Below, piece after piece: positions 10,044 through 33,007 of a DNA stretch of 64,000 bases. Position numbers and translations under genes: made by a program. This DNA comes from an uncultured Gammaproteobacteria bacterium. GTDB lineage: Bacteria > Pseudomonadota > Gammaproteobacteria > DRLM01. Under the pieces are notes generated by a model. The model did not search any database. It was given only the letters and a program-made list of their open reading frames with translations, and had not been told where the DNA came from. Location of the stretch: contig CAVSNY010000006.1 in NCBI GenBank assembly GCA_963729605.1, forward strand, positions 416,001 to 480,000, in the 5' to 3' direction. Every line of letters starts with the position of its first letter. The first letter of the stretch is position 1.

Positions 10044-10069
10044 CACATCCGGCCAACGGTTTTTTTTAT

Positions 10070-10099: not shown

Positions 10100-10207
10100 G
10101 TATTCATCAATCCCCGCGCACGCGCCTTGCGGCGGCCGGCATGTTGGCAGTACCTAGGGCCCGTGCACCGCCGGTTCAACGCGTTTCAACAACACCCGAC
10201 CGACAGA

Positions 10208-14712: not shown

Positions 14713-14746
14713 AAGTCTATTCCTTGATAGGGGGGCTATCTGTACG

Positions 14747-16319: not shown

Positions 16320-17024
16320 TCACTGCGCCGGCGCCACCGACAACTCCCGCCGGCCACTCTCGGCCGAATCCGCATCCGGACTATTGCGATCAACCCACTC
16401 TTGACCGCGCCGTGCCAGCCACTCCGCCTCTTCCTTGGGCAGCGGGCCGCGCTTGAGGGTATTCTCCCATTCCCACAACGCGGCGCGGGCGCGCCGCACG
16501 TAATCTTCCGACGCCGGATCCGAAGGTGCGAGATGGATGTAGGTACGCATGGCGCCCAAGGCGACGGGCAGGTCATTCATGCCTTCCGCCGCGACCGCCA
16601 GGCCCCAATAGGCATTGCCTTGATAAGGCCGCAGGTCGACGGCGGTTTGGAAAAAATCCCGCGCCGCGGCGTATTGCTCCAAGCCCAACAGCGCATAACC
16701 CATGTTGACGTATGCCTCCGGCATGCGCGGCGCGAGGGCGATGACCCGGTGCAGGGCGGTGATGGCGTATTCGTATTCGCGGGCATGCAGCATCATCACC
16801 GCTTGCTGGAAGCGTTGGGTGATTTGTTCTTCGCGAGCGGCGCTGGCGTGTCCGCGCGGATCTAGCACCGGGTCGATGCGCGGGGCGACCGTGTCTTCCA
16901 AGGTCGCCAATTCCGGGCTGCGGCTGAGTCCGCCCAGCAGGCCGATGATGGCCAGCAGCAACAGCACTGACAGGAAAGAGGCGACCTTGGGCTGGCCGGC
17001 AATCACGCTATCGAGCGAACTCAT
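16320..17024 (-). CDS. Membrane-anchored TPR protein
   Basis: N-terminal TM; TPR pattern PEAYVNMGYALL/AYWGLAVA; overlaps the ccsA stop. Confidence 0.8.
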   Translation of the reverse strand: MSSLDSVIAGQPKVASFLSVLLLLAIIGLLGGLSRSPELATLEDTVAPRIDPVLDPRGHASAAREEQITQRFQQAVMMLHAREYEYAITALHRVIALAPRMPEAYVNMGYALLGLEQYAAARDFFQTAVDLRPYQGNAYWGLAVAAEGMNDLPVALGAMRTYIHLAPSDPASEDYVRRARAALWEWENTLKRGPLPKEEAEWLARRGQEWVDRNSPDADSAESGRRELSVAPAQ

Positions 17025-17878
17025 ATAACGCCTTTATGCGCGGCGGTGCTGTAGAAGGGCGTACCGAAATAGGTGAGGAAGGCGATGATGAAGATCGCGA
17101 TGATGAATACCGCACCGGCCCGCATCGGCAGTCGATAGGTCAAGCGCGCATGGATGGCGCCGCCTAAGGCCAGCCAGGTGAGAAACGACGAAGTTTCAAG
17201 CGCGTCCCATGACCAGTAACGGCCCCAGGCGTCCTGCGCCCACACCGCGCCGGCGATCAGCATGCCGCTGTGAAAGATAAAGGCGAGCAGCATGAAACGC
17301 CACGCCAGGTAATCGACCATGGCGTCATTGGGCAATTGGCGGAACCAAGGTTCCAGACGCCGCACGCCGCGCAGCAACAAAGCGCCGGCTAGACCGGTGC
17401 CGACCAGGCAGAAGCCGAGGAAGAATTTACCGAGACCGACATGCGCCCACAGCCAATTGTTGTAATAGGTGGGCGGAAAGGCGGTGTCGGTGGGTTCGAG
17501 CATCAACACCCACACACCCAGGATCCACATCAAGGGCAAGGCCACTACCGCGCTGGCGCGGATCGCCGGATAACGCCAATAGGCGTAGCTGTAAATGACG
17601 CCGAGGCTGAACAACTGGCTTATCAACAATTCGAAGAGATTGACGAATGGCCCGTGACCGATGCGCATCCAGCGTTCCGCCAAGGCCATCGCCAGCAGCG
17701 CGACGCCGGCGAGAATGAAGATGAACGCCGGGGTTTCGTAGCTGCGATTCACCGCGGCGCCCGCCGCGCCGCCGCGCGTCAGCACCACGCCGCGAATCAC
17801 AATAAAAGTGGCCAAGGCATACGCGGCCATTCCCGCCCACAACCAGGGTAGCTCGGTCATCGTTTTCCACTCATTCAT
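17021..17878 (-). CDS. ccsA: Cytochrome c biogenesis protein CcsA/ResC (system II)
   Basis: WWD motif GAVWAQDAWGRYWSWDALE, conserved His residues, multiple TM helices. Confidence 0.88.
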   Translation of the reverse strand: MNEWKTMTELPWLWAGMAAYALATFIVIRGVVLTRGGAAGAAVNRSYETPAFIFILAGVALLAMALAERWMRIGHGPFVNLFELLISQLFSLGVIYSYAYWRYPAIRASAVVALPLMWILGVWVLMLEPTDTAFPPTYYNNWLWAHVGLGKFFLGFCLVGTGLAGALLLRGVRRLEPWFRQLPNDAMVDYLAWRFMLLAFIFHSGMLIAGAVWAQDAWGRYWSWDALETSSFLTWLALGGAIHARLTYRLPMRAGAVFIIAIFIIAFLTYFGTPFYSTAAHKGVI

Positions 17879-18903
17879 ATTGCACCCCCTTTGGAAGAAG
17901 CGGGATATCTTCCCGCCTTCATTGCCTCGGCGGCCGCCCCGGCCGGCATGCGCGCGCCGAATTTACGCCAGAAATGGACGGACATGCCTATCACGCCGAA
18001 TACCGATATCACGAACAGCCACTGCAAGGTGGGATCGTAAAATATTTTATAACCCATCCAGGTCGACAGGCGTTCATACCGCAACTGTCCGCCGGGTAAA
18101 TTCACGGTCTCGCCCGGCTGTAGTTCGACGCGATCGGCGCCGGTGTTGACCACGAGCGTGCCTTTGGCCTTTTGGCCGTCCAATACCCACGCCGCTTTTT
18201 CCGTTATGCCGGTTTCGAGGCGCAGCCAGAATTTGATCTCCGGCCCACCGGGCGGCTGCCAGGTATTGTCCTGTTTGAATTCGAACAAGGGATAGGCCGG
18301 CATGTGCACCACGCCGGTCTGCGGCTCACCCCGCTCGGGCATCCAGGTCAGCAGCGGCGCGAAACCTTTGTTGAACGAGGTGTAGAAACGATAGCCTTCC
18401 AACACCAGAGGCCGGTCGTCACCGACTATGCGGCGTTCCCAACCGCCTTGCCCGTCCGGCACGCGCACCTCGCTGTGGGTGAGACCGCGTACCATGCCCG
18501 GCGCGTAATCGACGGTATAAGGCCCTTGCACGAAGACCAGTTTATCCAAATTACCCGCATGCCAGGGACCGCGGGTATCGTCGAACAATTCGTCGGCGGA
18601 AAACGGGGTGTCCTGCACCATCTCCACATGGGCCTCCAAGTGGGTGAGACGGCCTATCGCGGCCAATATCACCACGCCCAGCAGCGCGATATGAAACGTG
18701 AGCAGGCCGCCGCGGCGATTGATCCGCGGGTTGGTGATGATGGCGGCCAATAGATTGACCGCCAAAAACGCCATGGGCACCACCAGCACCCACACCGAGG
18801 TCGTCACCGGGTTGCCATAACTCAACCCCGCGCCGATGGCCAGCAACACCATGCCCACCAAGGTGAGCCGCAGGGAGGCGAGAGGTCTCAGGACGGCATT
18901 CAT
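17875..18903 (-). CDS. resB: Cytochrome c biogenesis protein ResB/CcsB-like
   Basis: LASLRLT N-terminus, TM helices with His (TFHIAL), periplasmic domain, YDP before the C-terminal TM; adjacent to ccsA. Confidence 0.8.
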   Translation of the reverse strand: MNAVLRPLASLRLTLVGMVLLAIGAGLSYGNPVTTSVWVLVVPMAFLAVNLLAAIITNPRINRRGGLLTFHIALLGVVILAAIGRLTHLEAHVEMVQDTPFSADELFDDTRGPWHAGNLDKLVFVQGPYTVDYAPGMVRGLTHSEVRVPDGQGGWERRIVGDDRPLVLEGYRFYTSFNKGFAPLLTWMPERGEPQTGVVHMPAYPLFEFKQDNTWQPPGGPEIKFWLRLETGITEKAAWVLDGQKAKGTLVVNTGADRVELQPGETVNLPGGQLRYERLSTWMGYKIFYDPTLQWLFVISVFGVIGMSVHFWRKFGARMPAGAAAEAMKAGRYPASSKGGAI

Positions 18904-21587
18904 GGAAGATTGTTGCAGGTTTCTTCACCGTTGCCGTTCATCCACGTAATACCTCGCTTGCCATTGCCCGGCGCGCCGGCTGAACCGCAACTGACCGGCG
19001 TCCATTCACCGCTGCGTTTGAAGTTGACCACCTTCAGCACCGAGCCGTTGTAATACGGCCCGCGGTAATAACGCTGCGGGCTGGGCGTGCGCACCTGAGT
19101 GCCCGCCGGCAAACCGGCTTCCAGTCCCACGTCGTTCAAGTTGACCAGGAAGTTTTTATTCTTCCAGCCGTGGGGCACGGCGATATGGCAGAAATTGCAG
19201 CGGAAATTGCGCACCACGTCTTCCTTGGCGTGACCGGTATGGAGATTGACGTTGGGCACGCCCACGCAAGACGCATTACCGGTGCTGCGCCGGAAACCGC
19301 TCTGCAAGGTTTGATTGCCGGCCAAAGGACCGGCGGGAAATGCTTTGCCGTAGTAATCGTAATTATGGCAGCGGAAACACAAGGCGTCGGGGGTGGCCGC
19401 GCCGGTATTGTCGTTCCACGGACCCTTCAGAATAAAATCATTGTTCGAACCGTGCGGTCCCCAGGAATTGCCTTGCGCACCGCCGCGCGGCACGGCGCCG
19501 TCATTGACGTCGGTATCCGAACCATGGCAATCGGTGCAATACATGGTCTGGGTACCTACGCCCGCGTTGAAAGGCGTTACCCAGACATCGGGACTATTGA
19601 TGCTGCGTACCGCGATCGTGCGCCCGGTGTCCTTGAGCGCGGGGTGCCAGGACCGATGATTGTTGTCCACCAGATTGACGCAGTTGCCCTGACTGTCACG
19701 ATAACCCGGCCAATTTTCCGAAGTCGCGTAATTGGCGTCGGTATAGGTGTCCTGGCATTCGCCTATGGCACCGGTGAAGAACGCGCCGGTCGGTGTAGTG
19801 GGAGTGCCCTCGCCTTTGTGATCGTCCGGCGATTGATATTCCATGGCCTGATTGGTGTATTGGAACATCGCGTTGGTCCCCGGCGGCGTACCGCCCCGGA
19901 AGGATCCCAGGTTGGGCGGTGAATCATACGCGTTGTTGGAGTGGCACTTCATGCACACCTGGTATTCGCGAGTGACGTAAGGCGCATTGACGTCGGTGCT
20001 GCCGCCCACGCCGGGATCACCGCGTTTGATCTCGAAGATCGTTGGCTCGCTGCCGAACTCGGTCGACGGCCAACCGCCCGGTTCCACGCCGGAAATACCG
20101 CGCAATACGCCGGAAGCCAAATTGGTGTGGATACCGCCGGTGGCGGCGAGCTGACTGGCGGTATGATTGTGGGTGCCTTCCTCCGGGTCAGGTATGTTGG
20201 GATCATCGTTGAATAACCGATTGCGGATCACCCGATGGGGATTGTGGCAGTCGGTACATTCCGCATGGCGGTTGTTGGGATCGCCTTTGCCCATGTGGAG
20301 AGTGGATTCCACGAAATCTTTACCGCCTTGCTGGCTCCTGAGCGGGCCGGTGCCAATGTCGTGCATCTCGCGCCCGGCCGGTTGATCGGCGCTGGCGATG
20401 GGCATGTGCCGGGCCATGGTGGTGAAGTCGGTTTTAATGTCGGGCACGCCGAAGCCGGGGCGGGTGCTTTGGGTGCCGCCGGTAGGACCGCCGCGCAGCA
20501 CGTCGCCGTCCGCCGAATGACAGGCGTAACAGGTTTCTTCGATGGCCGGTTGTCCCCCATGACGGAATTTGGCGCCGCTCGCGGTGATCGCCGGCGGGCC
20601 GTCGGCGCCTTCACGCAGAATGCGCCGCGAGCCTTGCACGGTGTGGGGATCATGGCAATTCAAACAGGCCGCCTGCCACACTTGGATGCCGCGGGGAAAT
20701 TCGCGGAGATCGGCCGCGGCATCTTGGTACTCATAGGTGGCGACGGCGGAGCTGGCGTGAGCCGAACCGACCCAGCCCGCCTTGTCGTGGCAGCCCAGGC
20801 AAATGATGTCGTTCTCGGCGTTGAACTGGCGATCCACCGGCTCTGCTCTCTGAAAGCGGTTCGCCCGCAGAAACTTGATATTTTCCCCCGAGGTATCGCG
20901 GATATGGGGATCGTGACAACTGACGCATTCCAAGCGATTTTCTTCCAAGGGCAGCAACGGCGCGGGCTGGCCTTGCACCCGGTCGCCCACATGGGCAACC
21001 ATAGCGGGATCATACAGCTCACCGTCACGCTCGGCTTGCGCGCTGTCGTAGGTAAAGGAGATGGGATGGTCGTTACGCAAATCCACGCCCAATCTGCGGG
21101 TGAAGCCGGTGGTGGATCCCATGCCTTCGGGAATGGTATCGCCCGGTCCGATGCCCGGGCCGGTGAAATCGATATTGGGATCTTCGACGCGATTGAGCAC
21201 ATTGACCGCGCCCAGGGCGAGGGTGCCGTCATGGCAGGATAAACACAATTTAGACTTGGCGCGCGGCTGATCCAGATCGATCGCGTCGAGCGAGCCGGAG
21301 GAATACGGCGTATAGGTGGTACCGGAGAGTTTGCGGTTCCACAACGGCGCCATGGGCGCCTTGGTCGCGCCGTGCGGCGTGTGACAGAAGGCGCATATCT
21401 GCGACTCGCTGCTGGCGGCGGCATTGCGTTGCGCGCCGTCGGGCAGGATGGGGATCACCGTCGCGGAAAAATTGTGCCTGGTGTTGCGGATATCGGAAAT
21501 ACGTTCGGCCTGCGCCGGCAGGGCGGATAAAATCAAACACGCAGCGGTCAGCGCGAGGATGCACCCGTTTCGCAGCGTCCGTATCAT
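18900..21587 (-). CDS. Secreted undecaheme cytochrome c (UetJ-like) with an OmcE-like N-terminal module
   Basis: Signal peptide AQA; 11 CxxCH counted: CAFCH, CLSCH, CVSCH, CLGCH, CLNCH, CYACH, CTDCH, CMKCH, CTDCH, CFRCH, CNFCH. Confidence 0.9.
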   Translation of the reverse strand: MIRTLRNGCILALTAACLILSALPAQAERISDIRNTRHNFSATVIPILPDGAQRNAAASSESQICAFCHTPHGATKAPMAPLWNRKLSGTTYTPYSSGSLDAIDLDQPRAKSKLCLSCHDGTLALGAVNVLNRVEDPNIDFTGPGIGPGDTIPEGMGSTTGFTRRLGVDLRNDHPISFTYDSAQAERDGELYDPAMVAHVGDRVQGQPAPLLPLEENRLECVSCHDPHIRDTSGENIKFLRANRFQRAEPVDRQFNAENDIICLGCHDKAGWVGSAHASSAVATYEYQDAAADLREFPRGIQVWQAACLNCHDPHTVQGSRRILREGADGPPAITASGAKFRHGGQPAIEETCYACHSADGDVLRGGPTGGTQSTRPGFGVPDIKTDFTTMARHMPIASADQPAGREMHDIGTGPLRSQQGGKDFVESTLHMGKGDPNNRHAECTDCHNPHRVIRNRLFNDDPNIPDPEEGTHNHTASQLAATGGIHTNLASGVLRGISGVEPGGWPSTEFGSEPTIFEIKRGDPGVGGSTDVNAPYVTREYQVCMKCHSNNAYDSPPNLGSFRGGTPPGTNAMFQYTNQAMEYQSPDDHKGEGTPTTPTGAFFTGAIGECQDTYTDANYATSENWPGYRDSQGNCVNLVDNNHRSWHPALKDTGRTIAVRSINSPDVWVTPFNAGVGTQTMYCTDCHGSDTDVNDGAVPRGGAQGNSWGPHGSNNDFILKGPWNDNTGAATPDALCFRCHNYDYYGKAFPAGPLAGNQTLQSGFRRSTGNASCVGVPNVNLHTGHAKEDVVRNFRCNFCHIAVPHGWKNKNFLVNLNDVGLEAGLPAGTQVRTPSPQRYYRGPYYNGSVLKVVNFKRSGEWTPVSCGSAGAPGNGKRGITWMNGNGEETCNNLP

Positions 21588-22651
21588 GCGCCCTCTCTCA
21601 GGAACTGAAGTATGACCACCCGGCCATTAAAACTGTCGGCGATGTAGACCCGGTCGCGGTGATCGGTCCACACTCCCGCCGGCAGATAAAATTGCCCGAG
21701 CCCCCCGCCCGTACCGCCGATCGGCAACAATAACTCACCTTCGGGGTTGAATACTAACAAATAATCAAAATACGATTCTACCACATAGACATTGCCGTCT
21801 TTATCCACGCCGACGCCCTTGGGGCGCGGCATGTCGCCCACGAATATCCCGCGGCGGCCGAACACTTGCAAAGGCTCGCCATCGGCGGACACCACCTGCA
21901 CCCGGGCGTTGAGGGTATCCGTCACATAGAGCCGATTATCGGCGAAGCTCAAATATGTGGGGGAGTTATATTCACCGGCCGCCTCGCCGCGGTGACCGAA
22001 GGTTTTCACCAATTCGCCGCCGTCGCTGAATACTTTGATGGCGTGGCCGTGGGTGTCGGCCACATAAATCCGGCCGTTCTCCGCATCCCGCGCCACGCCC
22101 GTGGGCCGCACCAACTGGTCTTTACCAAGAATGCCGCGCGGAACACCGTCTTTATTCAAACGGACCACGTAACCCAGTTCCGCGTCGGCCACCAGGATTT
22201 CGCCGTCGGCGCCCAACGCGATCCCGATCGGGGCAACGAACCGGACATTGTCGCCGGCCATCTCCCACACCCGCAAACTACCGGCCTGCTCATCGAACAC
22301 ATAGACCGCTTGGCGGCTGACGTCGGTGACATACACCCGGCCCGCCGGGTCGGTCACTCCGCCCTGCGGCCGCTGCAAGACCACCGGCACATGTTTGGGC
22401 GAGGTCAAGCCGACCAGCCACTTCAAAAAGCGCGTGCCGCTGGACCCGAAACCTTGCTCGGGGACGTGGATATTTTGTTCGCCGACGAGCTCGCCCACAT
22501 ACTGATACCGCGGCGTCTCGGGCGGCGCGGGCCACACCGCCGTGAAAGGCGGATCGGGCTGATAACGCAGCGTGCTGTGGGTCGGCGCGCATCCCGCCAA
22601 TATCGCGGACGCGACCAACAACCCCGCCGCGAACTTGGCACGTCTCACCAC
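21584..22651 (-). CDS. NHL-repeat beta-propeller lipoprotein (UetI-like)
   Basis: Lipobox LAGC; repeats of PxGV...IYVAD, YVTDTLNARVQ, YIADSFNGRV. Confidence 0.88.
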   Translation of the reverse strand: MVRRAKFAAGLLVASAILAGCAPTHSTLRYQPDPPFTAVWPAPPETPRYQYVGELVGEQNIHVPEQGFGSSGTRFLKWLVGLTSPKHVPVVLQRPQGGVTDPAGRVYVTDVSRQAVYVFDEQAGSLRVWEMAGDNVRFVAPIGIALGADGEILVADAELGYVVRLNKDGVPRGILGKDQLVRPTGVARDAENGRIYVADTHGHAIKVFSDGGELVKTFGHRGEAAGEYNSPTYLSFADNRLYVTDTLNARVQVVSADGEPLQVFGRRGIFVGDMPRPKGVGVDKDGNVYVVESYFDYLLVFNPEGELLLPIGGTGGGLGQFYLPAGVWTDHRDRVYIADSFNGRVVILQFLREGA

Positions 22652-22667
22652 ACGACACCCCCCTTAT

Positions 22668-23723
22668 TTATTGTTGCGTTTTGAATCCGCCTGCCGAGAT
22701 CTTGAACACTTGGATACGGCCGTTGAGACTGTCGGCCACGTATAAAGACCCCCCATCCAGCCACACGTCGCTCACGCCGTTGAAGCGGCCGGGCCCCACC
22801 CCGGCGCCGCCAAGGGTCGCGACCAACTTACCTTGCTCGAATATCCGTACGGTGTTATTAAAAAAGTCGGAGACGTAAGTTTGATTATCGGCGTCGACCG
22901 CCACGGCATTGGGAAACACCACGGTATCGGGATCGAAGGCGTATTTGAACGCGCCTTCCTCCGAGAGGACTTGGGCGCGATGGGCGAAACGCGCGGTGAC
23001 ATATACACCGTCGGGACCGCGAGCCATGGAGGTGATATTCAAGAATTCACCCTCGCCTTCACCGCGGCCACCCAGGGCGCGCCACAAACCGCCCGCGCCA
23101 TTGAAGATCAACACGTGATCGAGCACGCCGTCGGCGACGTAGACATCGCCGGTGGTCTCGTCCACCGACACCGCCACCGGCCGCCGCAGATTCATGGAAT
23201 CCTGGAAGGTGGCCTCCAGACGGCCATTGCGATTGAACTTGAGCACCTTGCCGCCGACGCTATCGGCGAGATAAAACGTGCGGTCGCCGGTGACGAAGAT
23301 ATCCGCCACATCGCCGACCACCAGCCCGCGCAAACTGACCAGCACTTCCTGGGTTCCGGAAATACGATCATAAAGGATCACCTGCTGCTGATCGGCATCG
23401 ACCACGTACACCCAGTGATCTTTGGCCGCCACCGCCACCGGACGGCGGAAACGCGCATCCTGCAAGAGCACCAGGCCTTCCGTGTCGCCGGTCATCACCG
23501 GCCGCAGCTCGCCGTTGCCGAAAAAGGCGTTGCCGGTCCGGCCGCCACTGATGCTTTCTTCAAAATAAATTTGGGTCGAACCGGTCTCGGCGACCACCAC
23601 GCCTTCGGCGCCCGAGGACATGGGGGTGCCGCCGAACATGGAACATCCGTTCAGTAGCCAGGTGCTGCCGATCAGCAGCGCGGTCAGCGCAGCCCGGCGG
23701 AATCGCGCGGTACGGAGTGGCAT
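22668..23723 (-). CDS. NHL-repeat beta-propeller lipoprotein (UetH-like)
   Basis: Start reassigned to ATG 23723 (MPLRTARF...LLNGC lipobox); RPVAV, VYVAD, YVADSLNGRIQ repeats. Confidence 0.85.
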   Translation of the reverse strand: MPLRTARFRRAALTALLIGSTWLLNGCSMFGGTPMSSGAEGVVVAETGSTQIYFEESISGGRTGNAFFGNGELRPVMTGDTEGLVLLQDARFRRPVAVAAKDHWVYVVDADQQQVILYDRISGTQEVLVSLRGLVVGDVADIFVTGDRTFYLADSVGGKVLKFNRNGRLEATFQDSMNLRRPVAVSVDETTGDVYVADGVLDHVLIFNGAGGLWRALGGRGEGEGEFLNITSMARGPDGVYVTARFAHRAQVLSEEGAFKYAFDPDTVVFPNAVAVDADNQTYVSDFFNNTVRIFEQGKLVATLGGAGVGPGRFNGVSDVWLDGGSLYVADSLNGRIQVFKISAGGFKTQQ

Positions 23724-24286
23724 CGTCCACAATTCATGGTGGGAGGGAAGGCGACCTTGCCATGGCAAACACCGCAGTATTTGCCTTGGATGATGTCCGA
23801 CATGGTAACCGGATTTGCCCCTTTCTGGGGAAGAAAAATCGCGGGATGGCAATTGGCGCAGGTCAACCATTCCGTGTGGGCCAAATGGGGAAAGCGCACG
23901 AAGGGCATGGAACCGGTATTCTTGAAAATGATGTCGAAGTCGGCGACATACATATCCTTGTCGCCCAGCTTGCTCTGCCGCGCGTCGATCATGCCCTTTT
24001 GCAGCACTTGCACCCAATCGATGATGCCGGCGGCGTCGCGCGGGAAATCCTTCATGGATTCCACCGGCTCTTGGAAAATGGTGACGGCGCTGTTGGTGGG
24101 ATCGTGGATACCGTCTTCGATGACGGGCACCACCTCACCTTCGGTTTGGAAGTGCAGGCCCTTGGTCCACACCGGGCCATCTTCCGCGTGCGCCACGACG
24201 GCCCAACCGAAAAACAGGGCGATGGCCACAGCGAAATATCCGCGGAGATTATTCTTAAACGCGTATCGCTCGACGCCTTTATTCAT
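23684..24286 (-). CDS. c7-like triheme cytochrome (UetG-like)
   Basis: Signal peptide AHA; FPHLAH, CANCH, CGVCH, CGRCH. Confidence 0.88.
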   Translation of the reverse strand: MNKGVERYAFKNNLRGYFAVAIALFFGWAVVAHAEDGPVWTKGLHFQTEGEVVPVIEDGIHDPTNSAVTIFQEPVESMKDFPRDAAGIIDWVQVLQKGMIDARQSKLGDKDMYVADFDIIFKNTGSMPFVRFPHLAHTEWLTCANCHPAIFLPQKGANPVTMSDIIQGKYCGVCHGKVAFPPTMNCGRCHSVPRDSAGLR

Positions 24287-24408: not shown

Positions 24409-26028
24409 CTATTGCACACCCGCCAGCCGCAAAGCCCTTTGTATCCTTTCGGTCGCCGCCTGCATCGCCATCACGGCCATTTTGTGATCGCCCTTGGCCG
24501 CCAATCCCAAGGCCTCGTCATGAACCTCGGTGGCGCGACCGGTCAGTTCGTGCATCATGGTCACCGTTTGCGGCGCCGGACGGCGTTGCTCGATGGCCAC
24601 GGGCACCAGTTCCACGTAACTGCGGTAACGGGACAGCTCGAACTCATATTCATCTTTAGGCGAGGCGAAGTTCTTGTCATAGACCACGGTCTGCGAGTGC
24701 AACATCGCGCTCAAGGCCGCGGTGATCAGCTCATTGGCCGATTCCAGCCGCTTGGCCGCGCCTTCGTGATCGCCTTTGCCCGCCAGGCTTTCCGCCTCGC
24801 TCAGCAGCTTGTCGTATTTGGCCTTGTCCAATTCCTCGCCCGCTTTACCGGGCTTCATGCCCTGCGCCACGTTTTTCTGGTAAGAGGCCTTAAAACCGCC
24901 GACCTGTTCCAGCAAGGCGGCGTAACGGGCTTTGTGGTCCACCGCCGGTTGCTCGGGAACTAAACGGGTGGCGGCATTCATCATCCGCAAGGCCTCGTCC
25001 ACCGAGCCCATGGCCTGGTTATTATCACCGGCGGCGAGCGCGGTACGCACGGCGATCAACTGCTCCTTCGCCCCGGCGACCAAGGCTTGCGCCTCGGCGT
25101 TATTACTGGCGGCCACCCGCTTGGCGGAGGCGGACGAGCCGATCAGCATATCCGCGAAACTCAGCTTCTGCTTCACTTGCTCCGCCGTATAGTTGCGGAC
25201 TATCGGGGTCTCTGCCGCGGGCAGCGCGGGCGGCGCACCCAAGCTCACCTTTTCCCCAGCGTTGACCACGTGAATCCTGCCACCCATATAAGCGTGGTTA
25301 CGGCATTCGTAATACACCTCGTCCGGTGTCGTGGCCGACGGTGTAAAGGTCGCGTCGCCCTTGAAAATAAACTGGCCGGTGATACCGTCGGTCAAGGTGC
25401 CCGCACCGCGGCCCACCGGGCTGGTCGTGAAATAAAAATCGTGCATCACCCCGGTGTCCAAACTAAACGTGTAGGTTACGCCGCGGGTCAGCACCAGCTC
25501 TTTGCCCTGCACGCCGTCCGTCACGAACGCCATGTCCGAACCACGGCCGAAATAAGGGTGACTGGCGTCCTTGGGTCCGGCGACCAACTGAAAAGTTCGC
25601 GGTGTACGATCAGCCACTACGGTGACCGGACCGGGGCGTTGCGCGGCCGGCACGCTTGCCGCGGGTTTGGACGGGACCGGGCTGGGCGCCACTACGGCGG
25701 GGGGCGCGACTACCGGCGCAGGCGCCGCAGCGGGCGGAACGGCTTCGGCGGTTGGAACAACGTCGGCGGGTGGCGCGGATAAATCGGTTTTATTTTCCGG
25801 CGCGGTCTGCGGTGATTCCTCTACCGGCGCGGACGGGGCCTCCGTGCTGCCGGCCTCCGGTTGCGTGAGGGCGTCGTCCGTGGTGGTGGCGACTACACTC
25901 GGCGATTGCGCCGACATGACCGGCGCCGGCGCGGCGGTCTGCGCGACCTCTTTCTTTTCACCGGTGGACACACACGCCGTCATCGCCACCGCGATCGCCA
26001 GACATAACAATTTACGCTTTGAGTTCAT
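24409..26028 (-). CDS. Lipoprotein with Pro/Ala linker, cupredoxin-like motif and helical C-terminus (UetF position)
   Basis: Lipobox MTAC; PA-rich linker; MHDFYF...YYECRNHAYMGG. Confidence 0.8.
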   Translation of the reverse strand: MNSKRKLLCLAIAVAMTACVSTGEKKEVAQTAAPAPVMSAQSPSVVATTTDDALTQPEAGSTEAPSAPVEESPQTAPENKTDLSAPPADVVPTAEAVPPAAAPAPVVAPPAVVAPSPVPSKPAASVPAAQRPGPVTVVADRTPRTFQLVAGPKDASHPYFGRGSDMAFVTDGVQGKELVLTRGVTYTFSLDTGVMHDFYFTTSPVGRGAGTLTDGITGQFIFKGDATFTPSATTPDEVYYECRNHAYMGGRIHVVNAGEKVSLGAPPALPAAETPIVRNYTAEQVKQKLSFADMLIGSSASAKRVAASNNAEAQALVAGAKEQLIAVRTALAAGDNNQAMGSVDEALRMMNAATRLVPEQPAVDHKARYAALLEQVGGFKASYQKNVAQGMKPGKAGEELDKAKYDKLLSEAESLAGKGDHEGAAKRLESANELITAALSAMLHSQTVVYDKNFASPKDEYEFELSRYRSYVELVPVAIEQRRPAPQTVTMMHELTGRATEVHDEALGLAAKGDHKMAVMAMQAATERIQRALRLAGVQ

Positions 26029-26224
26029 ACGTCTCCTCGCCGAATCTCATGGCCATACCCAGCCGCAAAGCGTCCGCCGACCCGGTTCATCTCGAACTCA
26101 GTCCAGATGAAATTTACCTCCTGGGCAACGGTGTTGCTCACAGTTTGTCCGTAAAACACGGTGTCAAAAACGGGCTAAATGCGGCGGCGCCACAATCACT
26201 TGTGGCGCCGCTTGCGTTATCGGA

Positions 26225-26926
26225 CTAACGCCAGGGATTCTTAAGCGTGGCGTCGCTCAACGGCGGCGACCAATCCGCGGGCTTGGGCTTGGAGTGGCAC
26301 TTGGAGCAGGTCTTGGTGGTGATCGGGAAAGAAACCTTGCCATGACACACACCGCACTTCTGTCCCAACAGAATGGCCGACATATTGATTTGGTTGGCCC
26401 CTTTCTGCGGGATGAAGATGGCGGGATGACAGTTGGCGCAGGACAGCCATTCGGTGTGTTGACGATGGGGGAACACCACGTCCGGCACCGAGGCCTTCAC
26501 CTCGCGGACGATATCCATGTCCATCACGAAGGGCTCTTCGCTGGAATCGATACGGTCCCAGCGGGGTGAGAGCTTCTTCTCGTCGATGGCCTTCACCCAG
26601 TCGACATGATTGCCGAACTCGGTGGTGGGCAGACCTTTATAGGCCTCCTTAGGCGGCTGGAGAATATGGGTGCCTTCGTTCTCCGGATCGTGATAGCCGC
26701 TCTCCGGCGGCGCCGCGTTGGGATCCTTTTCCTTCTTCAAATTGCGGTTGAAGGTGTTGGAGGACGAGACATCGGCGAGCATCAAGCGTTCGCCGGGCGC
26801 CGCCTGCTGCATGGCACCACTAAACAGACCCGCGTCCGCGGCGAAGGCGGAAGCAGAAACCAGCAGGGTCAACACCGCTGATCCTACAAAGATTTTCAAT
26901 TGTTGTGTCATGACCACGCTCCTCAC
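26225..26926 (-). CDS. c7-like triheme cytochrome (UetE-like)
   Basis: Signal peptide AFA; FPHRQH, CANCH, CGVCH, CSKCH. Confidence 0.88.
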   Translation of the reverse strand: MRSVVMTQQLKIFVGSAVLTLLVSASAFAADAGLFSGAMQQAAPGERLMLADVSSSNTFNRNLKKEKDPNAAPPESGYHDPENEGTHILQPPKEAYKGLPTTEFGNHVDWVKAIDEKKLSPRWDRIDSSEEPFVMDMDIVREVKASVPDVVFPHRQHTEWLSCANCHPAIFIPQKGANQINMSAILLGQKCGVCHGKVSFPITTKTCSKCHSKPKPADWSPPLSDATLKNPWR

Positions 26927-26935: not shown

Positions 26936-27382
26936 TTACTGTTTGGCAGGCTGTTGTGGAGCGTTGAGCGCCTTATAAGGTGGCGACACTAGACGCTGCA
27001 CGGTGCTCCCGTGAATGTGGGTCGGCGTGCCAGGTATGCCGGAATGGCACATATTGCAGTTCTCCACGGACCAAGCCACCTCCCCGTTATGGCAAGCGCC
27101 GCAGAATTTACCGTCGATGATCTTGGCCATGGTGATCTTGTTGCCGCCGGCTTTGAACTCGAATCCCAGGTCGGCATGACAGACCTTGCAAGTGAAACGA
27201 ATACGATGAAACCAGTGCGGGAATACCACGGGACGCATACCGGCCGCGTCGGCGTAATTATTAATGATCACATCGGCATATTCCGCTTTGGCGGGGGTCA
27301 TGGCCAGCAGGGCCAGTCCCGCTAACACCCCCAAAATGGAAAATCTCCATTTGATGCTACGGTCGGCTTTGTAGGACGTCAT
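26936..27382 (-). CDS. c7-like triheme cytochrome (UetD-like)
   Basis: Signal peptide AKA; FPHWFH, CKVCH, CGACH, CNMCH. Confidence 0.88.
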   Translation of the reverse strand: MTSYKADRSIKWRFSILGVLAGLALLAMTPAKAEYADVIINNYADAAGMRPVVFPHWFHRIRFTCKVCHADLGFEFKAGGNKITMAKIIDGKFCGACHNGEVAWSVENCNMCHSGIPGTPTHIHGSTVQRLVSPPYKALNAPQQPAKQ

Positions 27383-27460: not shown

Positions 27461-29212
27461 TTAAAATCGGCGCATCACGCGAAAGTATAAGAGCTGCGAA
27501 GCCTCGTGGCCGTTATCCATCCATCTGAAACTCAGGCTGGCGTCCACCAATCCGATGGTGTAATTCAGGCGGTTTTCCCATTCGTTGCGATCCAAACCCT
27601 CACCCGTGGAGGCTTGCGAGAGCCGCAGGTCGGAGTTGAATTGCAGGCGCGGAATACTGAACAGGGTTTGCTGAAGATAACTGATCTGACCGGTGGTGGT
27701 GGTCACCGAGCCGTCATTGGCTCCACCGGAGAAATCGCGCACCACCGTCTGCAACGTCAAATGGCCCGACAACGTGCTGCGCGCACCCAAGGCCTGATAA
27801 CGCGAGGCCTGCAAATTCACCAGCTGCTGCTCATCGCTCAGATCACCGAAATTACGCGAATCCGACAAGGTGAGTTGCACCAGGGTGGTCGCACCCTGAG
27901 TGGACGACTGATTCCAGCCCAAGCTTGCGCTGTGATCCAGGCGATGCTGAGTGGCCTCATCACCGGTGGTCAACACCTCGTTGAAGGCCTGAGTCAGACC
28001 CACGCGCAAAGACGATTGCGGGTCCAGCATCCACATCCTCTGCGCATCGTGACCCAATGAGGCCTGTAACGACTGGACGTTTTCATCCACGTCGCTCTGG
28101 TTTTCCAGCGCGCCGCTGACATACCACTGATACGTAAAACTCCGCCATTCGATCAGATCGGATTGCAGCAGGGCGCCAAGTCGCTGGCGATGCAGGGTTT
28201 GATTGGCGCCATTGATATCCGACTGACTGAAATTGGCGCTGCCGTCAAAGCGCAGCCGTTTCGAATATTGATAGAAGGCGCCCGCCGTCGCGCCGAAGCT
28301 GGCTTGATCGCTGGATTGCGCGGAATTTTCGCCGGCCATGGTATAGGCGCGCGCGCCCGCGCTGACCGTCCAGCGTTTATCGACCGGCCGCCAGAACGTG
28401 AAGCTGGATACCTGGTTGATTTCCGTGGTGACGGTATCCACCAAGCCGGTCGCCCCTTCGAAGGTGGTATCGAGATGGTAATGGCTGGCCTTGGTGTCGA
28501 GCCGGATATCCTCGTTGGGGAAATAATAATGATCGACGTCGAGAATGAAATTTTCTTGGTGGCGATCGGTGCGCGACTGATCGGTGGTTTCTATATTGCC
28601 GCGGAACAACAAGCGCTGGCGGACCGGCCGCCAGTCCAATTCCACGCCCATAATTTCGTTTTCATAGGTACCGCTCAGGTCCGAATCCCAGGTGCGCGCA
28701 CCATATCGCAACTGGGCGCGATGGCCTTCTTCGGTGATGTACGATTGCCGCAAATCCAAATTGGTGGTTTGGTATTCCGAACCGAACACCCGCACCAGCG
28801 GGTTGTAGACCACGGTATTGTCCACCCGGCTGTCGGTGGCTTGATACAACAAGCGGAAAGGGGTGCGGCTGTCCGGCAACACGTTGAGCATCAGGTCGCC
28901 GGAATACACGTCCGAGGTGGTGCTGGTGCTGGCGTTGCCGTCGTCCAGGTCCGAGCTGTCCTTGGCCAGGGTGGCGCCGCCCTCGACGGTGGCGAACCAC
29001 GGCTGCCAGATATAAGAGCGTAAGCGCAGATTTCCCAACAACTGGTTGCTGGTGGCGTCGGTGGTATCGGTGCTGAGCGAACGGAAACTGTAACCCACGC
29101 TGCCTGACACATCCACGGGCAAGGCGCGCGCCGCGGGGCACACGGACACCAGCGCCACCAGCGCCAAGCCCTGGGTGACGTGAGATGCGAACGCAGCACA
29201 GACCCGTCTCAT
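27461..29212 (-). CDS. Large outer-membrane beta-barrel of the cytochrome cluster (UetC-like)
   Basis: Signal peptide ARA; alternating amphipathic strands; C-terminal YFRVMRRF beta-signal. Start set at ATG 29212. Confidence 0.8.
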   Translation of the reverse strand: MRRVCAAFASHVTQGLALVALVSVCPAARALPVDVSGSVGYSFRSLSTDTTDATSNQLLGNLRLRSYIWQPWFATVEGGATLAKDSSDLDDGNASTSTTSDVYSGDLMLNVLPDSRTPFRLLYQATDSRVDNTVVYNPLVRVFGSEYQTTNLDLRQSYITEEGHRAQLRYGARTWDSDLSGTYENEIMGVELDWRPVRQRLLFRGNIETTDQSRTDRHQENFILDVDHYYFPNEDIRLDTKASHYHLDTTFEGATGLVDTVTTEINQVSSFTFWRPVDKRWTVSAGARAYTMAGENSAQSSDQASFGATAGAFYQYSKRLRFDGSANFSQSDINGANQTLHRQRLGALLQSDLIEWRSFTYQWYVSGALENQSDVDENVQSLQASLGHDAQRMWMLDPQSSLRVGLTQAFNEVLTTGDEATQHRLDHSASLGWNQSSTQGATTLVQLTLSDSRNFGDLSDEQQLVNLQASRYQALGARSTLSGHLTLQTVVRDFSGGANDGSVTTTTGQISYLQQTLFSIPRLQFNSDLRLSQASTGEGLDRNEWENRLNYTIGLVDASLSFRWMDNGHEASQLLYFRVMRRF

Positions 29213-29513
29213 TGTTATTATCGCGCGCCCCTCAGTGACATATCCCCTCGAAGCCTCCACCCGGCGCTCCCCCGGATGGCGAGCTACAACGCGCGCGCGG
29301 ACATTGCCCCCGTCCGCCGTCGTGCGCATTGCCGCGCGCCGTAAATTTTTTCACCTTAAGCGACCTCGCACCTCAATGCAAGATCACTCGCCCTCAACGA
29401 CCGGCGCCACTCATTTTTAATCGCCTAGCGGCGCCCACTCTCCCTTGCCCGCCCTGATGTCGCCCGACAATCCCTCCTTGATCGGGACTGAAAATTAATA
29501 CATCGGCCGCAAT

Positions 29514-30329
29514 TTATTTATTATGACAAGTTAAACACACGGCGCTGCCCGCTGGGTCAACGCGAAGGAAAGTGGGGGTCTCATCCACGTGGGGATCATG
29601 GCAGGAGCCGCACTCCACATAAGGCTGCGCCTCGCCCGCATACGCCCCCCGCGTCGCCACCCGGGTATACAGCTTCATATCGGTACGTTCGAAGGATTGA
29701 GTCCCCTCGGGGGTATTGACCCACCACACCCGGCTGGTGCCCATGATCTCTGAATTGGCGGGATGAAAATCCCGGTCCGCGCCCGGTCCGCCCGCGTTCG
29801 ACAGTGAATAACCACCACCCGCGTATTGAATACCGATAGGATGGTCGTTGGTGAGATCCTTGCCCAAATTAGTGATCACCGCCGGCCGGCCGATGCGGCC
29901 TTGCGCGGGCCGCGCCTGTCCGCTCCAGGCCCCGTTGCGAAAACCGGGCACCTGCACGCCGGAGCCCGGCTCGTTGATCAAGGTATCCATGGCTTGCGTG
30001 CCGTCGTGGCAGGAAAGGCAGGCGACCGAGACCGAACCTATCGGCTCGATGGACCCATCGAGGGTGGTGGTGCCGAGTTGATCGTAGGTTTCGTAGCCGG
30101 TGGGGTCGATGTTGCGGTTCCATAATGGAACGGCCGCGCTGGCGTTGGCCCCATGAGGCGTATGACAAAATACGCAGATCTCCCGCGTGCCGTCGATATT
30201 GCTCACGGCATTCAGCCCCCCCGCACTCAAGTTGTGCTTGGTATTAAATACGCCGCCGAGGCTCACGCCCCCCGCCAACCACAGCAGCGTCGCTCCGGCA
30301 AAAACCAAAGCGCGATAACCGGTTTTCAT
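29514..30329 (-). CDS. Secreted tetraheme cytochrome c, OmcE-like (UetA-like)
   Basis: TKHNLS, ICVFCHTPH, PLWNR, CLSCHDG, LGKDLTNDHPIG, ECGSCHDPH, FLR, SAVCLTCHNK. Confidence 0.9.
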   Translation of the reverse strand: MKTGYRALVFAGATLLWLAGGVSLGGVFNTKHNLSAGGLNAVSNIDGTREICVFCHTPHGANASAAVPLWNRNIDPTGYETYDQLGTTTLDGSIEPIGSVSVACLSCHDGTQAMDTLINEPGSGVQVPGFRNGAWSGQARPAQGRIGRPAVITNLGKDLTNDHPIGIQYAGGGYSLSNAGGPGADRDFHPANSEIMGTSRVWWVNTPEGTQSFERTDMKLYTRVATRGAYAGEAQPYVECGSCHDPHVDETPTFLRVDPAGSAVCLTCHNK

Positions 30330-30614
30330 CACTCGCCCCTTTAAAGGGTTTTCCGCCGTCAGATTTTGTCAACTTAGGCGCTAAGTTACAAGTGTTTAAA
30401 CTGACTATGGCCATCGGCGCGCAAAACCTTGTGATTCGCCCGCTTCCAAAGTTAGTCAAAACGGCGCGGGAGCCGAAAATGACCGCGCATCAAAACCAGC
30501 GGCCGCGGCCCTTCCCGTCTCAACGCCTCATCAAACGCGCTTGATTATTTTAGCGACGTCGCCTGACAGTGGAGCAACCGTTGACCGTTCACATCCAACC
30601 GGACATATCGACAT

Positions 30615-30663: not shown

Positions 30664-31710
30664 TTATTTCGAAGAAAATTTATGGTTGATACCCAATGAC
30701 AGGGCCGACGCATCCTGGCCGGTCACCGAGTTCAACCTGGTCAAGTCATAATTGCCATTGTCGCCATTGCTCATCAGGTTGTACATCGCGTACAACTCGG
30801 TGTTCTTGGTGAAGTTGCGAAACACGCCCAAGGCGAAATGGGTGGCGCCGGAATCGGCCTCCGAGTCTTTTTCATCGGCCATGGCGACCGAACCCTTCAG
30901 CGTATAACCCTCCAGCTTATGGGCCACGCTCACCAGAAAGGCATTGCGCTGATTGTCGGCGCCGCCCTCATCGGCGCTTTCAAAAATCGCCCCCACCGTG
31001 GTGGGACCGAAGGCATAGCTGCCGCCCACCTTCATGGCCACCGCATCGTCGCCGTTGGTGTGATAGGCATTGAGCGACTCGTAAGCGGCGGTGAGGTACC
31101 AGGGACCGCTGTTGTAACTGCCGTTCACGCTGTAGACATCGCGATCGCTCTACCGCGTGGTCATGGGCAGATCGTCATCGCCCCGATGATCGGCAAACAC
31201 ATAGCCCAGCATCGCGCTGAAGCCGTTCATGCTCGGCGTCGTGTAGATGATAATGTTGGAGGCGCGGCGATCGAACAATTTATTGCCGTCGTCCACGCTG
31301 CCGATGATGGCGTTGAAATCGCCCTTGGTCTCGGCAAAGATATCCAGCTTGGAGGTGGCCCTTTTATAGGGGGTATCGTGTTTGCCCGCCAGCACCTGAC
31401 CAAATCCGCCCGTCAGACCCACAAAGGTGTTGCGCTGGCTGCTGAACGCCGCGCCGTCGTCAAAATCCACCTGCTGCTCGATCTGCCACAAGGCGGCGAG
31501 TCCGTTACCCAAATCCTCGTCGCCCTTGAAACCCAGACGGGAATCGTAGCTGGTCAGACTAATGGCGCTGTCTTCATTGCCCGCCGTGGGGTCATTATTG
31601 TTATTGAAATCCAACGAGACATAAGCCGCCCCATACACCTCCACGCCGGCCTGCGCCAACGGCGCCATCATGGCAGCCACGACACCCGCGGCGATCATAT
31701 GTTTATTCAT
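30664..31710 (-). pseudogene. Gram-negative trimeric porin with an in-frame TAG at 31150-31152
   Basis: The two track ORFs share one frame (PMTTR*SDRDVYSVNG). SRLGFKGDEDLGNGL and GINHKFSSK are shared with the two neighbouring paralogs. Confidence 0.8.
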
Positions 31711-31891
31711 TATTCCCCCTCGACTATATTGAACCCCGTCTAAATCAACCCCGTCGATCAAAAACCGCCTTGCGCCGCGCGCTGGTCTGATGTTGATATC
31801 TTCCCGTGAAAAATCAGCACGGTAATCGCTCAACAGTCTAACAGTAGCGCATAGCCGCCTTTGTCACAACGCTCTCCTGCATGCGTTTCTC

Positions 31892-31939: not shown

Positions 31940-33007
31940 TTATTTGGAGGAGAAATTATGGTTGATACCGACAGATATCGCCGAGACACTCTTGTCGGCA
32001 AACCCCGCGACGGCCTGAGAACCCGACCACAGGCCGTAAGTGCCGTTGCTATCATTATCCACCTGCGTATAGAGGGCATACACCTCGGTGTTCTTGGTGA
32101 ATGAATGAAAACCGCCGAGGGTGAGCTGGGTGGCGCCGCTGCTGCTGATGCCATCCACGTCATCGGCCATCGCGATGGCCGCCTTCAAGCTGTTGTCACC
32201 CATTTTGTGCGTTGCACTCGCATACCAGGCACTGCGTTCACCGTTGGCGCCGCCGCGATCGGCGTTTTCAAACAGGCCCGAGAGCACGGTGCCTTGCCCG
32301 AAATTCCACGCCGCGCCGACGCGGTAGGCGACGCCGTCGTCGTTCGCGGTGAGATTGCCGATGGTCTCGTAGCTCGCAGCAAGATAGAGCGGACCGTTCT
32401 CGTAGCCCGCGCCGACGCTGACGAGTTCACGTTCGCTGTCGGTGGTGGTCATGGGCAAATCATCGCTGGTGCGATTGAACGAATACGCCGCATGCAGTTT
32501 GAGCCCCGCCATATCCGGGGAGGCGTAAGCCACGATGTTGGGCGTGCGGTTATCGAACAAGCGGTTGCCGCGGATATTGCCGATGATGGCGTTGTAATCG
32601 CCTTTGGTATCGGAGAAGGGATCGAAGCGCGCGGTCACGATGCGTAACGGGGTTTCATAGCGCCCCGCCAGCACCGTACCGAAACCGCCGCCCAACCCGA
32701 TGAAGGTATTGCGGGCGCTCTGGAAGGCCGAGCCGGTATCGAAGTCCACCTGGGTCTCGAGCTGCCACAACGCGCTCAAACCATTGCCCAAATCCTCGTC
32801 ACCCTTGAAACCCAGGCGCGAGGTATTGCTCGACAGCGACACCGCGCTGTCCTCGTTTCCCACCGTGGGATCATCGTTATTGATGAAGTCCAGCGACATA
32901 CGGGCCTTACCGTAAACCTCGACACCGGCCTGCACGGCGAAAGAGGCGCCCACCGCCATCGTCGCCGCTACCGCCGTCACCAGCCCCCTCTTGCTCATCA
33001 TCTTCAT
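31940..33007 (-). CDS. Gram-negative trimeric porin
   Basis: VQA-GVEVYG, SRLGFKGDEDLGNGL, GINHNFSSK. Confidence 0.92.
   Translation of the reverse strand: MKMMSKRGLVTAVAATMAVGASFAVQAGVEVYGKARMSLDFINNDDPTVGNEDSAVSLSSNTSRLGFKGDEDLGNGLSALWQLETQVDFDTGSAFQSARNTFIGLGGGFGTVLAGRYETPLRIVTARFDPFSDTKGDYNAIIGNIRGNRLFDNRTPNIVAYASPDMAGLKLHAAYSFNRTSDDLPMTTTDSERELVSVGAGYENGPLYLAASYETIGNLTANDDGVAYRVGAAWNFGQGTVLSGLFENADRGGANGERSAWYASATHKMGDNSLKAAIAMADDVDGISSSGATQLTLGGFHSFTKNTEVYALYTQVDNDSNGTYGLWSGSQAVAGFADKSVSAISVGINHNFSSK

Follow-up and report, generated by a model that had tools for sequence, protein, structure and literature searches.

What does a copper-type motif do inside an electron conduit that is otherwise built from c-type hemes? 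The question is raised by an open reading frame (ORF) in a 64,000-nucleotide stretch of DNA, here called the window, from an uncultured Gammaproteobacteria bacterium (lineage DRLM01; assembly GCA_963729605.1, contig CAVSNY010000006.1, positions 416,001 to 480,000). In this ORF, at 24409..26028 on the reverse strand, the original prediction, made from the letters alone, had recognized a lipobox, a Pro/Ala/Thr linker, a beta-rich domain, copper-ligand motifs and a long helical region, and all of these are present.

The ORF is the local copy of uetF of a Tenderia-like uet cluster. This cluster, uetABCDEFGHIJ ('undecaheme electron transfer'), was described for the candidate order Tenderiales; its sixth gene was named 'Cupredoxin UetF', and the product was said to carry a predicted cupredoxin domain, to be far larger than azurin, rusticyanin or plastocyanin, and possibly to differ from them in role (Eddie et al. 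2022, 10.1101/2022.05.06.490989). A cupredoxin inside an otherwise heme-based conduit is already in print, and the window gene is a new ortholog. Within the available parts of the literature on UetJ, UetF and the Tenderiales, UetF is discussed only in that preprint, and the accessible text of the Eddie papers holds no description of the ligand set, lipobox, linker or helical repeats. Added here are the invariance of the ligands, membership of the Pfam family PF25489, a probable outer-membrane anchor, the helical repeats and their existence as a module, and variants of the cluster that have no cupredoxin. The parts of the gene are as follows.

24409..26028, reverse strand: uetF ORF, 539 residues plus stop (ORF list; 98 homologs at E ≤ 0.001)
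26033..26038, reverse strand: ribosome-binding site GAGGAG, 4 nt upstream of the uetF ATG (read from the sequence)
25972..26028, reverse strand: signal peptide and lipobox M-T-A-C, residues 1-19, with Cys19 (translation)
25627..25971, reverse strand: Ala/Pro-rich disordered linker, residues 20-134 (composition; predicted local distance difference test score, pLDDT, < 50)
25234..25626, reverse strand: cupredoxin domain of PF25489 type, residues 135-265 (model, Foldseek, VIA, Pfam)
25558..25560, reverse strand: codon of His157, in the motif K-D-x-S-H-P (conservation)
25441..25443, reverse strand: codon of His196, proposed N-terminal copper ligand, in H-D-F-Y (conservation)
25285..25305, reverse strand: Cys242-x2-His245-x2-Met248, proposed C-terminal ligand loop (conservation)
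24943..25203, reverse strand: helical repeat 1, residues 276-362, a three-helix bundle (model helices)
24679..24942, reverse strand: helical repeat 2, residues 363-450 (model, hhalign)
24412..24678, reverse strand: helical repeat 3, residues 451-539 (model), with the best-conserved, Glu/Tyr-rich stretch at about 450-484

No NCBIfam family was found for UetF. Contigs from RNA libraries (three runs, two studies) align to uetF at 90-99% likeness; they are contigs of relatives and establish presence in RNA libraries only, with no proof of transcription.

The cupredoxin domain and its ligands

A search of a 5.8-billion-protein collection at E ≤ 0.001 returned 98 homologs, which with the query gave an alignment of 99 rows, the lowest whole-length identity to the query being 32%. 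The four residues that the original prediction had singled out as copper ligands were conserved throughout. His196, within V-M-H-D-F-Y-F, is kept in 98/98 rows with a residue at that place (the 99th row is a fragment), and Cys242, His245 and Met248, within Y-Y-E-C-R-N-H-A-Y-M-G-G, are each kept in 99/99. Conservation of this order indicates that the four-ligand motif is more than chance. Cys242 is the one cysteine of the mature protein. A CuA site, which needs two cysteines, was considered and rejected.

An AlphaFold2 model of the whole protein, built on the 99 sequences, has pLDDT < 50 for residues 15-125, ten strands within 135-263 and eleven helices within 282-535, mostly at pLDDT > 90. Its predicted template modelling score (pTM) is 0.44, so the model does not fix how the two folded parts lie relative to each other. 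Residues 135-265 modelled alone, from a 94-row alignment, gave an all-beta structure with pLDDT 97.5 and pTM 0.91. When this domain was compared with the Protein Data Bank (PDB) by Foldseek, the first 8 matches were rusticyanin of Acidithiobacillus ferrooxidans (PDB 1rcy, 2cal, 1cur; E 1.2e-4 to 4.6e-4, 19-22% identity, template modelling (TM) score 0.41-0.49), followed by plastocyanins, small laccases and AcoP. VIA, a structure search independent of Foldseek, listed 50 rows, all 50 of them copper proteins or relatives that we take, from general knowledge, to have the cupredoxin fold; a small laccase was best (Z 9.1, root-mean-square deviation (rmsd) 2.8, 106 residues) and rusticyanin reached Z 7.5. 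In a second VIA run, which re-scored Foldseek's own list, the N-terminal type-1 copper domain of a Hyphomicrobium nitrite reductase scored best (Z 9.6, rmsd 2.8, 98 residues, 24% identity), and rusticyanin scored Z 9.1 with an alignment that reached the last residue of both chains. The predicted cupredoxin fold is thereby upheld by both methods, with rusticyanin at E 1.2e-4 in Foldseek and Z up to 9.6 in VIA.

The proposed ligands also stand where a cupredoxin would place them. In the model His196 lies just before the strand 198-201, Cys242 is the end of the strand 237-242, and His245 and Met248 occupy a short loop ahead of the strand 250-255, a strand register that fits a cupredoxin. Judged from the model and its structural matches, residues 135-265 are a Greek-key beta-sandwich of the cupredoxin fold.

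Only one Pfam family, PF25489, was matched by the UetF domain. The window domain alone scored 32.5 bits (E 9.4e-8) and the whole protein 25.1 bits, just below the gathering cut-off of 27; 70 of the 77 orthologous UetF domains matched. A HMMER search with the 131-residue domain against 1.84 billion representatives returned 1761 proteins at E ≤ 0.001, 348 of them at E ≤ 1e-10. Ligands were counted and domains typed in the best 145 new proteins. All four ligands were present in 65/67 UetF-type domains, which carry H-D-F-Y, and in 109/122 domains of other types, mostly H-P-F. In a tree that excluded rows with fewer than 80 aligned residues, the UetF-type domains formed their own clade, 66/67 tips falling in one split free of others (support 0.90). 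The other-type domain occurs in up to four copies per protein, in giant secreted proteins of 845-3065 residues that also bear SprB, PKD, Cu-binding_MopE, CHRD or DOMON domains and type IX secretion tails. Our examples (P0099-P0104, P0111, P0124 and P0241) have 1-4 PF25489 domains, mostly with the full His/Cys/His/Met set, and may be multi-copper surface proteins. PF25489 bears the name 'At5g54830-like domain'. No paper on it was found in the literature, and At5g54830 itself turned up only in listings and in one mention in a strain list. Most members thus keep a full blue-copper ligand set, yet for the family no literature was found.

A vestigial site is disfavoured because the four ligands are kept in 98-99 of the 99 sequences, down to 32% identity, and also in 109/122 distant domains. 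Taken with the modelled fold, this makes it very probable that the UetF domain binds one copper in a type-1 site. A further histidine in the first loop of the domain, His157, is kept in 93/95 UetF homologs and 83/122 distant domains, and could be a second metal contact or part of an electron-entry surface.

Among known copper proteins, rusticyanin is the best Foldseek match (VIA rmsd 3.1 over 105 residues, 20% identity). It is a single periplasmic type-1 copper domain of a lithoautotroph and takes electrons from an outer-membrane cytochrome. It is a soluble protein of 155 residues without lipid anchor, linker or helical domain, whereas UetF has all three, and its Cys-to-Met loop (ligands 138/143/148) is four residues longer than that of UetF. 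No sequence-level relation between the two was detected in the PDB searches, and the acid-stable, very high potential of rusticyanin cannot be assumed for UetF. The Cys-x2-His-x2-Met spacing is that of amicyanin, which has the shortest ligand loop among cupredoxins. Amicyanin is the partner of methylamine dehydrogenase, a context that UetF lacks, and it did not stand out in the Foldseek or VIA searches of the domain. As a rule, cupredoxins have Asn after the first His ligand; UetF has Asp there, and the distant PF25489 members, mostly H-P-F, differ in turn from the H-D-F-Y of the UetF type. A tethered relay has a parallel in the three-domain nitrite reductase of Hyphomicrobium denitrificans (PDB 6tfo, 2dv6), whose N-terminal type-1 copper relay domain is tethered to its machine. 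That domain belongs to another sequence family and is fused to its enzyme, whereas the UetF domain sits on a lipid anchor and a helical rod.

Anchor, linker and the surrounding uet cluster

A strict lipobox pattern was found in 63/99 aligned homologs, and about 7 more were recognized by eye in the N-termini. The usual form in orthologs is L-[ST]-[AG]-C; the window protein has M-T-A-C. The residue after the lipobox Cys is A, G, T, V or S, and Asp at +2 occurs in 0/63. By the sorting rule of Escherichia coli, lipoproteins without Asp at +2 go to the outer membrane, and because of this rule the anchor of UetF is probably in the outer rather than the inner membrane. The original prediction had given the linker about 130 residues; its Pro/Ala/Thr character stood, it was modelled as disordered, and its length came to 115 (residues 20-134; Ala 26, Pro 24, Val 15, Ser 11, Thr 10). 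Across the lipobox-bearing homologs the linker runs from 63 to 138 residues, the median being 108, and Ala makes up 23% of it and Pro 21%. Extended at about 0.3 nm per residue, a chain of 115 residues could span the periplasm.

The gene neighbours of uetF identify the locus as the uetABCDEFGHIJ cluster. In the list below, trihemes were assigned with TIGR04257 (cut-off 40 bits).

29514..30332, reverse strand: uetA, tetraheme cytochrome (4 CXXCH; Paired_CXXCH_1)
27461..29329, reverse strand: uetC, putative outer-membrane beta-barrel of 622 residues (position and tblastn; no family match)
26936..27382, reverse strand: uetD, triheme c7-type cytochrome (TIGR04257 68.6 bits; 3 CXXCH)
26225..26926, reverse strand: uetE, triheme c7-type cytochrome, upstream neighbour of uetF (TIGR04257 62.8 bits; 3 CXXCH)
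23684..24286, reverse strand: uetG, triheme c7-type cytochrome, downstream neighbour of uetF (TIGR04257 69.5 bits; 3 CXXCH; an internal ATG taken as start)
21584..23723, reverse strand: uetH and uetI, two NHL-repeat beta-propeller lipoproteins (NHL Pfam; lipobox-like L-N-G-C and L-A-G-C; start of uetH not fixed)
18900..21587, reverse strand: uetJ, undecaheme cytochrome of 895 residues (11 CXXCH; Paired_CXXCH_1, MtrC/MtrF-like domain)
16320..18903, reverse strand: System II cytochrome c maturation genes (ResB-like, CcsA-like) and a tetratricopeptide-repeat (TPR) protein (PF05140, PF01578, TPR, TIGR03144)

The neighbours of uetF carry 24 CXXCH motifs (4 in UetA, 3+3+3 in UetD, UetE and UetG, 11 in UetJ) and UetF carries none, so that the description of the conduit as otherwise all-heme was accurate. 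UetD, UetE and UetG have ordinary signal peptides, and the trihemes were predicted to be periplasmic in the published localisation; the barrel nature of UetC is likewise taken from that work (Eddie et al. 2022, 10.1101/2022.05.06.490989). By tblastn, uetC was matched at the same place in 73/87 loci. With uetF between the triheme genes uetE and uetG, the gene order is that of the published cluster. The UetF of 'Candidatus Tenderia electrophaga' (ALP54627.1, locus tag Tel_16525) occupies the same place, and the accessible description of its cluster includes the same tetraheme, barrel, three trihemes, two NHL proteins, undecaheme, CcsBA-type maturation genes and TPR protein. Orthologs from Candidatus Tenderia sp. 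metagenome-assembled genomes (MAGs), our stand-in for ALP54627.1, are 41% identical to the window protein over residues 1-539.

Whereas the published cluster has uetB, a peptidyl-prolyl isomerase gene, the window cluster has none, only 184 bp (29330-29513) lying between uetA and uetC. A SurA-like rotamase gene stands at the uetB position in one related locus (L017:5809-6816), and the nearest relatives (L009-L015) are spaced as tightly as the window.

For 'Ca. T. electrophaga', Tel_16525 was labelled a tetratricopeptide-repeat protein and a bridging role was suggested; the gene is reported to share a transcript with the three trihemes and to rank with the most highly expressed, and its peptides were found in greater abundance at 470 mV, a suboptimal electrode potential (Eddie et al. 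2017, PMC5371394). The midpoint of that biocathode was about +440 mV relative to the standard hydrogen electrode (SHE), and the cathode potentials used were 310-470 mV (Eddie et al. 2017, PMC5371394). Uet genes have also been reported in six Gallionella genomes (Hoover et al. 2023).

The genome from which the window comes has two RuBisCO large-subunit genes, one of them (G000:C6:407914-408840) 8 kb upstream of the window, and a divergent CcoN with two truncated CcoN-like frames (G000:C7:654406-667548), which fits an oxygen-respiring autotroph and the published picture of the Tenderiales. The truncated frames resemble the 'truncated CcoN' genes listed for that order (Eddie et al. 2022, 10.1101/2022.05.06.490989).

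Other features of the locus concern its edges and one of its trihemes. The Porin_4 gene adjoining uetA (30664-31833, reverse strand) is split into two ORFs, 31150-31833 (profile positions 3-167) and 30664-31128 (profile positions 190-309). Its equivalent in L017:3809-4861 is intact (350 residues), and the split could reflect a frameshift, pseudogene formation or an error in the assembly. It is followed by two further PorB-like porin genes, at 31940-33007 and 33163-34215. UetG homologs have no conserved His between the first and second heme motifs, but they do have an invariant Met (Met162 in the window protein), which suggests one His/Met-ligated heme per UetG triheme domain. His/Met-ligated heme occurs in the GSU1996-type 'nanowire' triheme domains.

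The helical module and variants of the cluster

The C-terminal half of UetF consists of three units of about 87 residues (276-362, 363-450 and 451-539). Profile comparison supports their nature as repeats, most clearly for units 2 and 3 (hhalign probability 93%, E 2.9e-7) and also for unit 1 against unit 2 (P 5.7e-4) and against unit 3 (P 8.5e-4). All three units match PDB three-helix bundles, with Z 8-11 (VIA, whole model), a level unspecific for helical folds. The near-invariant residues of this half include Y450, F454, E460, Y461, E464, R467, P476, E480 and P484. Such residues are Tyr, Glu, Asp, Arg and Pro; His, Cys and Met are missing among them, so that no heme or copper site is obvious. 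No Pfam family matched the helical part at E ≤ 0.1. A TPR assignment was rejected, the best such model being TPR_14 at E 1.3.

Some likeness to DUF4398 was seen. Unit 1 matched the DUF4398 structure 4fm3 at Z 9.8, again unspecific for helical folds, and a search of the ESM Atlas with the helical part returned unnamed clusters only, with a DUF4398 score of 0.83 that we treat as a lead. All of these likenesses (4fm3, Atlas) lie below specific levels. Two DUF4398 proteins, one of them OmpA-fused, are encoded just beyond the maturation genes (window 13588-15187, reverse strand).

The helical part exists as a separate module. The same genome encodes a helix-only paralog behind a signal peptide, P0244 (32% identity over 259 residues, E 1e-32), and equivalent paralogs were found in four related genomes. 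The Glu/Tyr-rich stretch (about 450-484) is kept in P0244 and in the helix-only in-cluster UetF proteins of other lineages described below.

G000:C2:289596-290639 (L088:7597-8640): P0244 gene, flanked by genes for a small outer-membrane barrel and an M90 peptidase; no Pfam family

UetF was present in 11/11 genomes of the window's own family, and 29 genomes of other families in the class gave one weak match, confined to the helical part. With one genome per species, 134 places encode a UetF relative, of which 79 loci were kept; they come from MAGs labelled Gammaproteobacteria, Candidatus Tenderia, Chromatiaceae, Ectothiorhodospiraceae, Gallionellaceae and Nitrosomonadales. Triheme genes adjoin uetF in the window's order in 74/79. 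The other 5, all from MAGs labelled Nitrosomonadales or Gallionellaceae, have uetF alone, once as a tandem pair.

Three genomes with UetF-like genes away from trihemes were searched for UetJ, and their uet clusters were then read. Two MAGs labelled Nitrosomonadales have, in the place between uetE and uetG, a gene for no more than a signal peptide plus the helical module (306 and 302 residues). In both, UetE is extended at its N-terminus by a class I monoheme cytochrome c domain, which contributes a fourth heme motif (PF13442, E 3.8e-10 and 1.2e-10). In a Gallionellaceae-labelled MAG (L095, G041:C73:1-19000) no uetF was found between the trihemes of the cluster, which has two tandem uetJ copies and four triheme genes. 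All three genomes encode full cupredoxin-plus-helix genes elsewhere.

L093:7914-8804 and L094:8182-9072: uetE with the extra cytochrome c domain
L093:8801-9721 and L094:7271-8179: helix-only uetF
L047:8274-9596 and 9878-11197 (tandem), and L051:9920-11212: three cupredoxin-plus-helix genes of the Gallionellaceae MAG, on other contigs

Next to the 81 in-cluster UetF ORFs with both modules, the neighbouring trihemes have three heme motifs in 80 cases, and in one a UetD ORF has four. An extra heme motif on UetE accompanies 2/2 helix-only cases, which are probably related genomes, against 0/81 with an in-cluster cupredoxin. These observations give a lead: the helical module may be the cluster-bound part and the cupredoxin a separable redox cargo, and a cluster without a cupredoxin in cis can show a small cytochrome c, of a type that usually has a high potential. 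Because the sample is two probably related genomes, such module exchange is a lead and not a result.

A possible copper relay and competing explanations

How might a copper domain on such a scaffold serve the conduit? The explanation we favour is that UetF is a lipid-anchored copper relay between the Uet hemes and inner-membrane complexes. UetF would be processed as a lipoprotein, with Cys19 holding it most probably to the outer membrane's inner leaflet, and would hang into the periplasm on its flexible 115-residue Ala/Pro linker. It would there present its cargo, a single-copper type-1 domain (His196, Cys242, His245, Met248) with a rod of three three-helix bundles, the helical module docking it to other Uet parts. 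Electrons would enter through the outer-membrane conduit of UetC, UetA and UetJ, pass to the periplasmic trihemes UetD, UetE and UetG, and then reach the copper, a one-electron relay with a potential above that of the neighbouring c7-type hemes. From the copper they would move on to an inner-membrane oxidase and to quinone-reducing complexes, giving UetF a place like that of rusticyanin in Acidithiobacillus.

We consider this explanation as a whole probable, and the relay function of the copper, taken by itself, hardly less so. The transfer of electrons from the c7 trihemes, the high potential and the bias towards inward flow, all three put forward in the original prediction, are inferences from gene adjacency, published co-transcription and the autotrophic genome. 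High potential and inward bias would also fit the donor potentials of 'Ca. T. electrophaga', the usual range of blue-copper potentials and the precedent of rusticyanin.

Several observations weigh against the favoured explanation. The structure scores are middling (TM 0.41-0.53, Z < 10), and sequence comparison alone did not reveal the fold: phmmer of whole UetF against the PDB returned 0 matches at E ≤ 10, a whole-UetF profile matched designed helical proteins only, and the domain profile gave at best E 0.025, to an unrelated protein, with pseudoazurin at E 0.24. No classical cupredoxin Pfam family (Copper-bind, Cupredoxin_1 and the like) was matched among 77 domains at E ≤ 0.01, or by whole UetF at E ≤ 0.1. 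At least 13/99 homologs, of about 430-455 residues, have an ordinary signal peptide and no linker, the domain starting directly after it. Because these lack a lipid anchor, the tether is a feature of lineages and not a requirement; the membrane-tethered, flexible arm of the original prediction, with its lipobox and long linker, holds for the window lineage and is not universal. Clusters can encode the conduit with no cupredoxin in cis, as the two genomes with helix-only UetF and the one with none attest. Finally, transcript levels of Tel_16525 did not change significantly between potentials (Eddie et al. 2017, PMC5371394).

Three other explanations give UetF a different place or task. It could be exported to the cell surface, like the lipoprotein cytochromes MtrC and OmcA, its copper being the first acceptor from an electrode, a mineral or Fe(II). 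The lipobox without Asp at +2 (63/63) and the long stalk would suit such a position, as would the frequency of the wider PF25489 family in giant secreted surface proteins with a type IX tail; and at the published cathode potentials of 310-470 mV a copper centre would be better suited than the typical multiheme cytochrome. However, the at least 13/99 homologs with a plain signal peptide and no stalk fit a soluble protein of the periplasm, uetF is flanked by genes of trihemes that have ordinary signal peptides and were published as predicted periplasmic, and no surface-export signal was found, so that we regard a surface location as unlikely. Still less likely, in our judgement, is that UetF is mainly a scaffold whose helical repeats align or hold the cytochromes and NHL propellers, with a copper that is structural, regulatory or vestigial and off the electron path. 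A scaffold is also how UetF was read earlier, under its tetratricopeptide-repeat label and with a suggested bridging role (Eddie et al. 2017, PMC5371394). Half of UetF is helical repeats, and the helical module is both the part retained in the cluster where the cupredoxin is missing and, as P0244, a separate paralog. Against a scaffold with an idle copper site speak the four ligands, kept in 98-99/99 homologs and 109/122 distant domains, unlike a vestigial site; nor does any TPR Pfam model match UetF (best TPR_14, E 1.3).

The least likely of the three is that UetF is a ferroxidase of the EfeO type, in which Fe(II) would be oxidised at the cupredoxin and the Fe(III) bound or handed on by the Glu/Tyr-rich helical domain. 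Periplasmic EfeO of E. coli (PDB 7wgu) is likewise built of two parts, a cupredoxin at the N-terminus and an all-helical domain after it, and 7wgu_A appears in the Foldseek list of the whole model as a weak match (rank 18, E 2.7e-3, probability 0.66, 445 alignment columns). The near-invariant helical residues, Glu, Asp and Tyr without His, Cys or Met, would suit iron, and carriers of the uet cluster include iron oxidisers according to published accounts. But EfeO is a protein of an iron-uptake operon, and the helical topology of UetF differs from it: the helical part is three three-helix bundles matching generic bundles, Peptidase_M75/imelysin was unmatched in Pfam at E ≤ 10, the 7wgu_A match has an rmsd of 29 Å, and EfeO is not among the 50 VIA rows of the whole model. 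As is generally known, the formation of Fe(III) in a periplasm at neutral pH would do harm. Moreover, 'Ca. T. electrophaga' is described as expressing uetF highly on a cathode without added iron substrate.

The relay between the Uet hemes and the inner-membrane complexes can also be put more boldly. The copper of UetF, and not a heme, might set the high uptake potential (midpoint about +440 mV versus SHE), acting as a rusticyanin-like one-way valve and as a branch point set between heme conduit and inner-membrane complexes. The rod of helices would dock the protein, and the copper domain would be exchangeable cargo, elsewhere encoded separately or complemented by a class I cytochrome c on UetE. 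PF25489 would then be a large, overlooked family of functional blue-copper domains, among them giant secreted proteins that string together as many as four copper domains. In all its parts together we hold this extended version to be doubtful.

The redox centres by which cells take up electrons from cathodes or Fe(II) minerals at +300 to +470 mV are unsettled, and most multiheme cytochromes lie far lower in potential. Hemes apart, UetF is the sole redox candidate that the uet cluster offers and, by the published account, is highly expressed in the one organism studied. The 131-residue domain is small enough to express, and its copper site and potential bear directly on the published Uet model. 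UetF is of interest chiefly as a clean experimental target.

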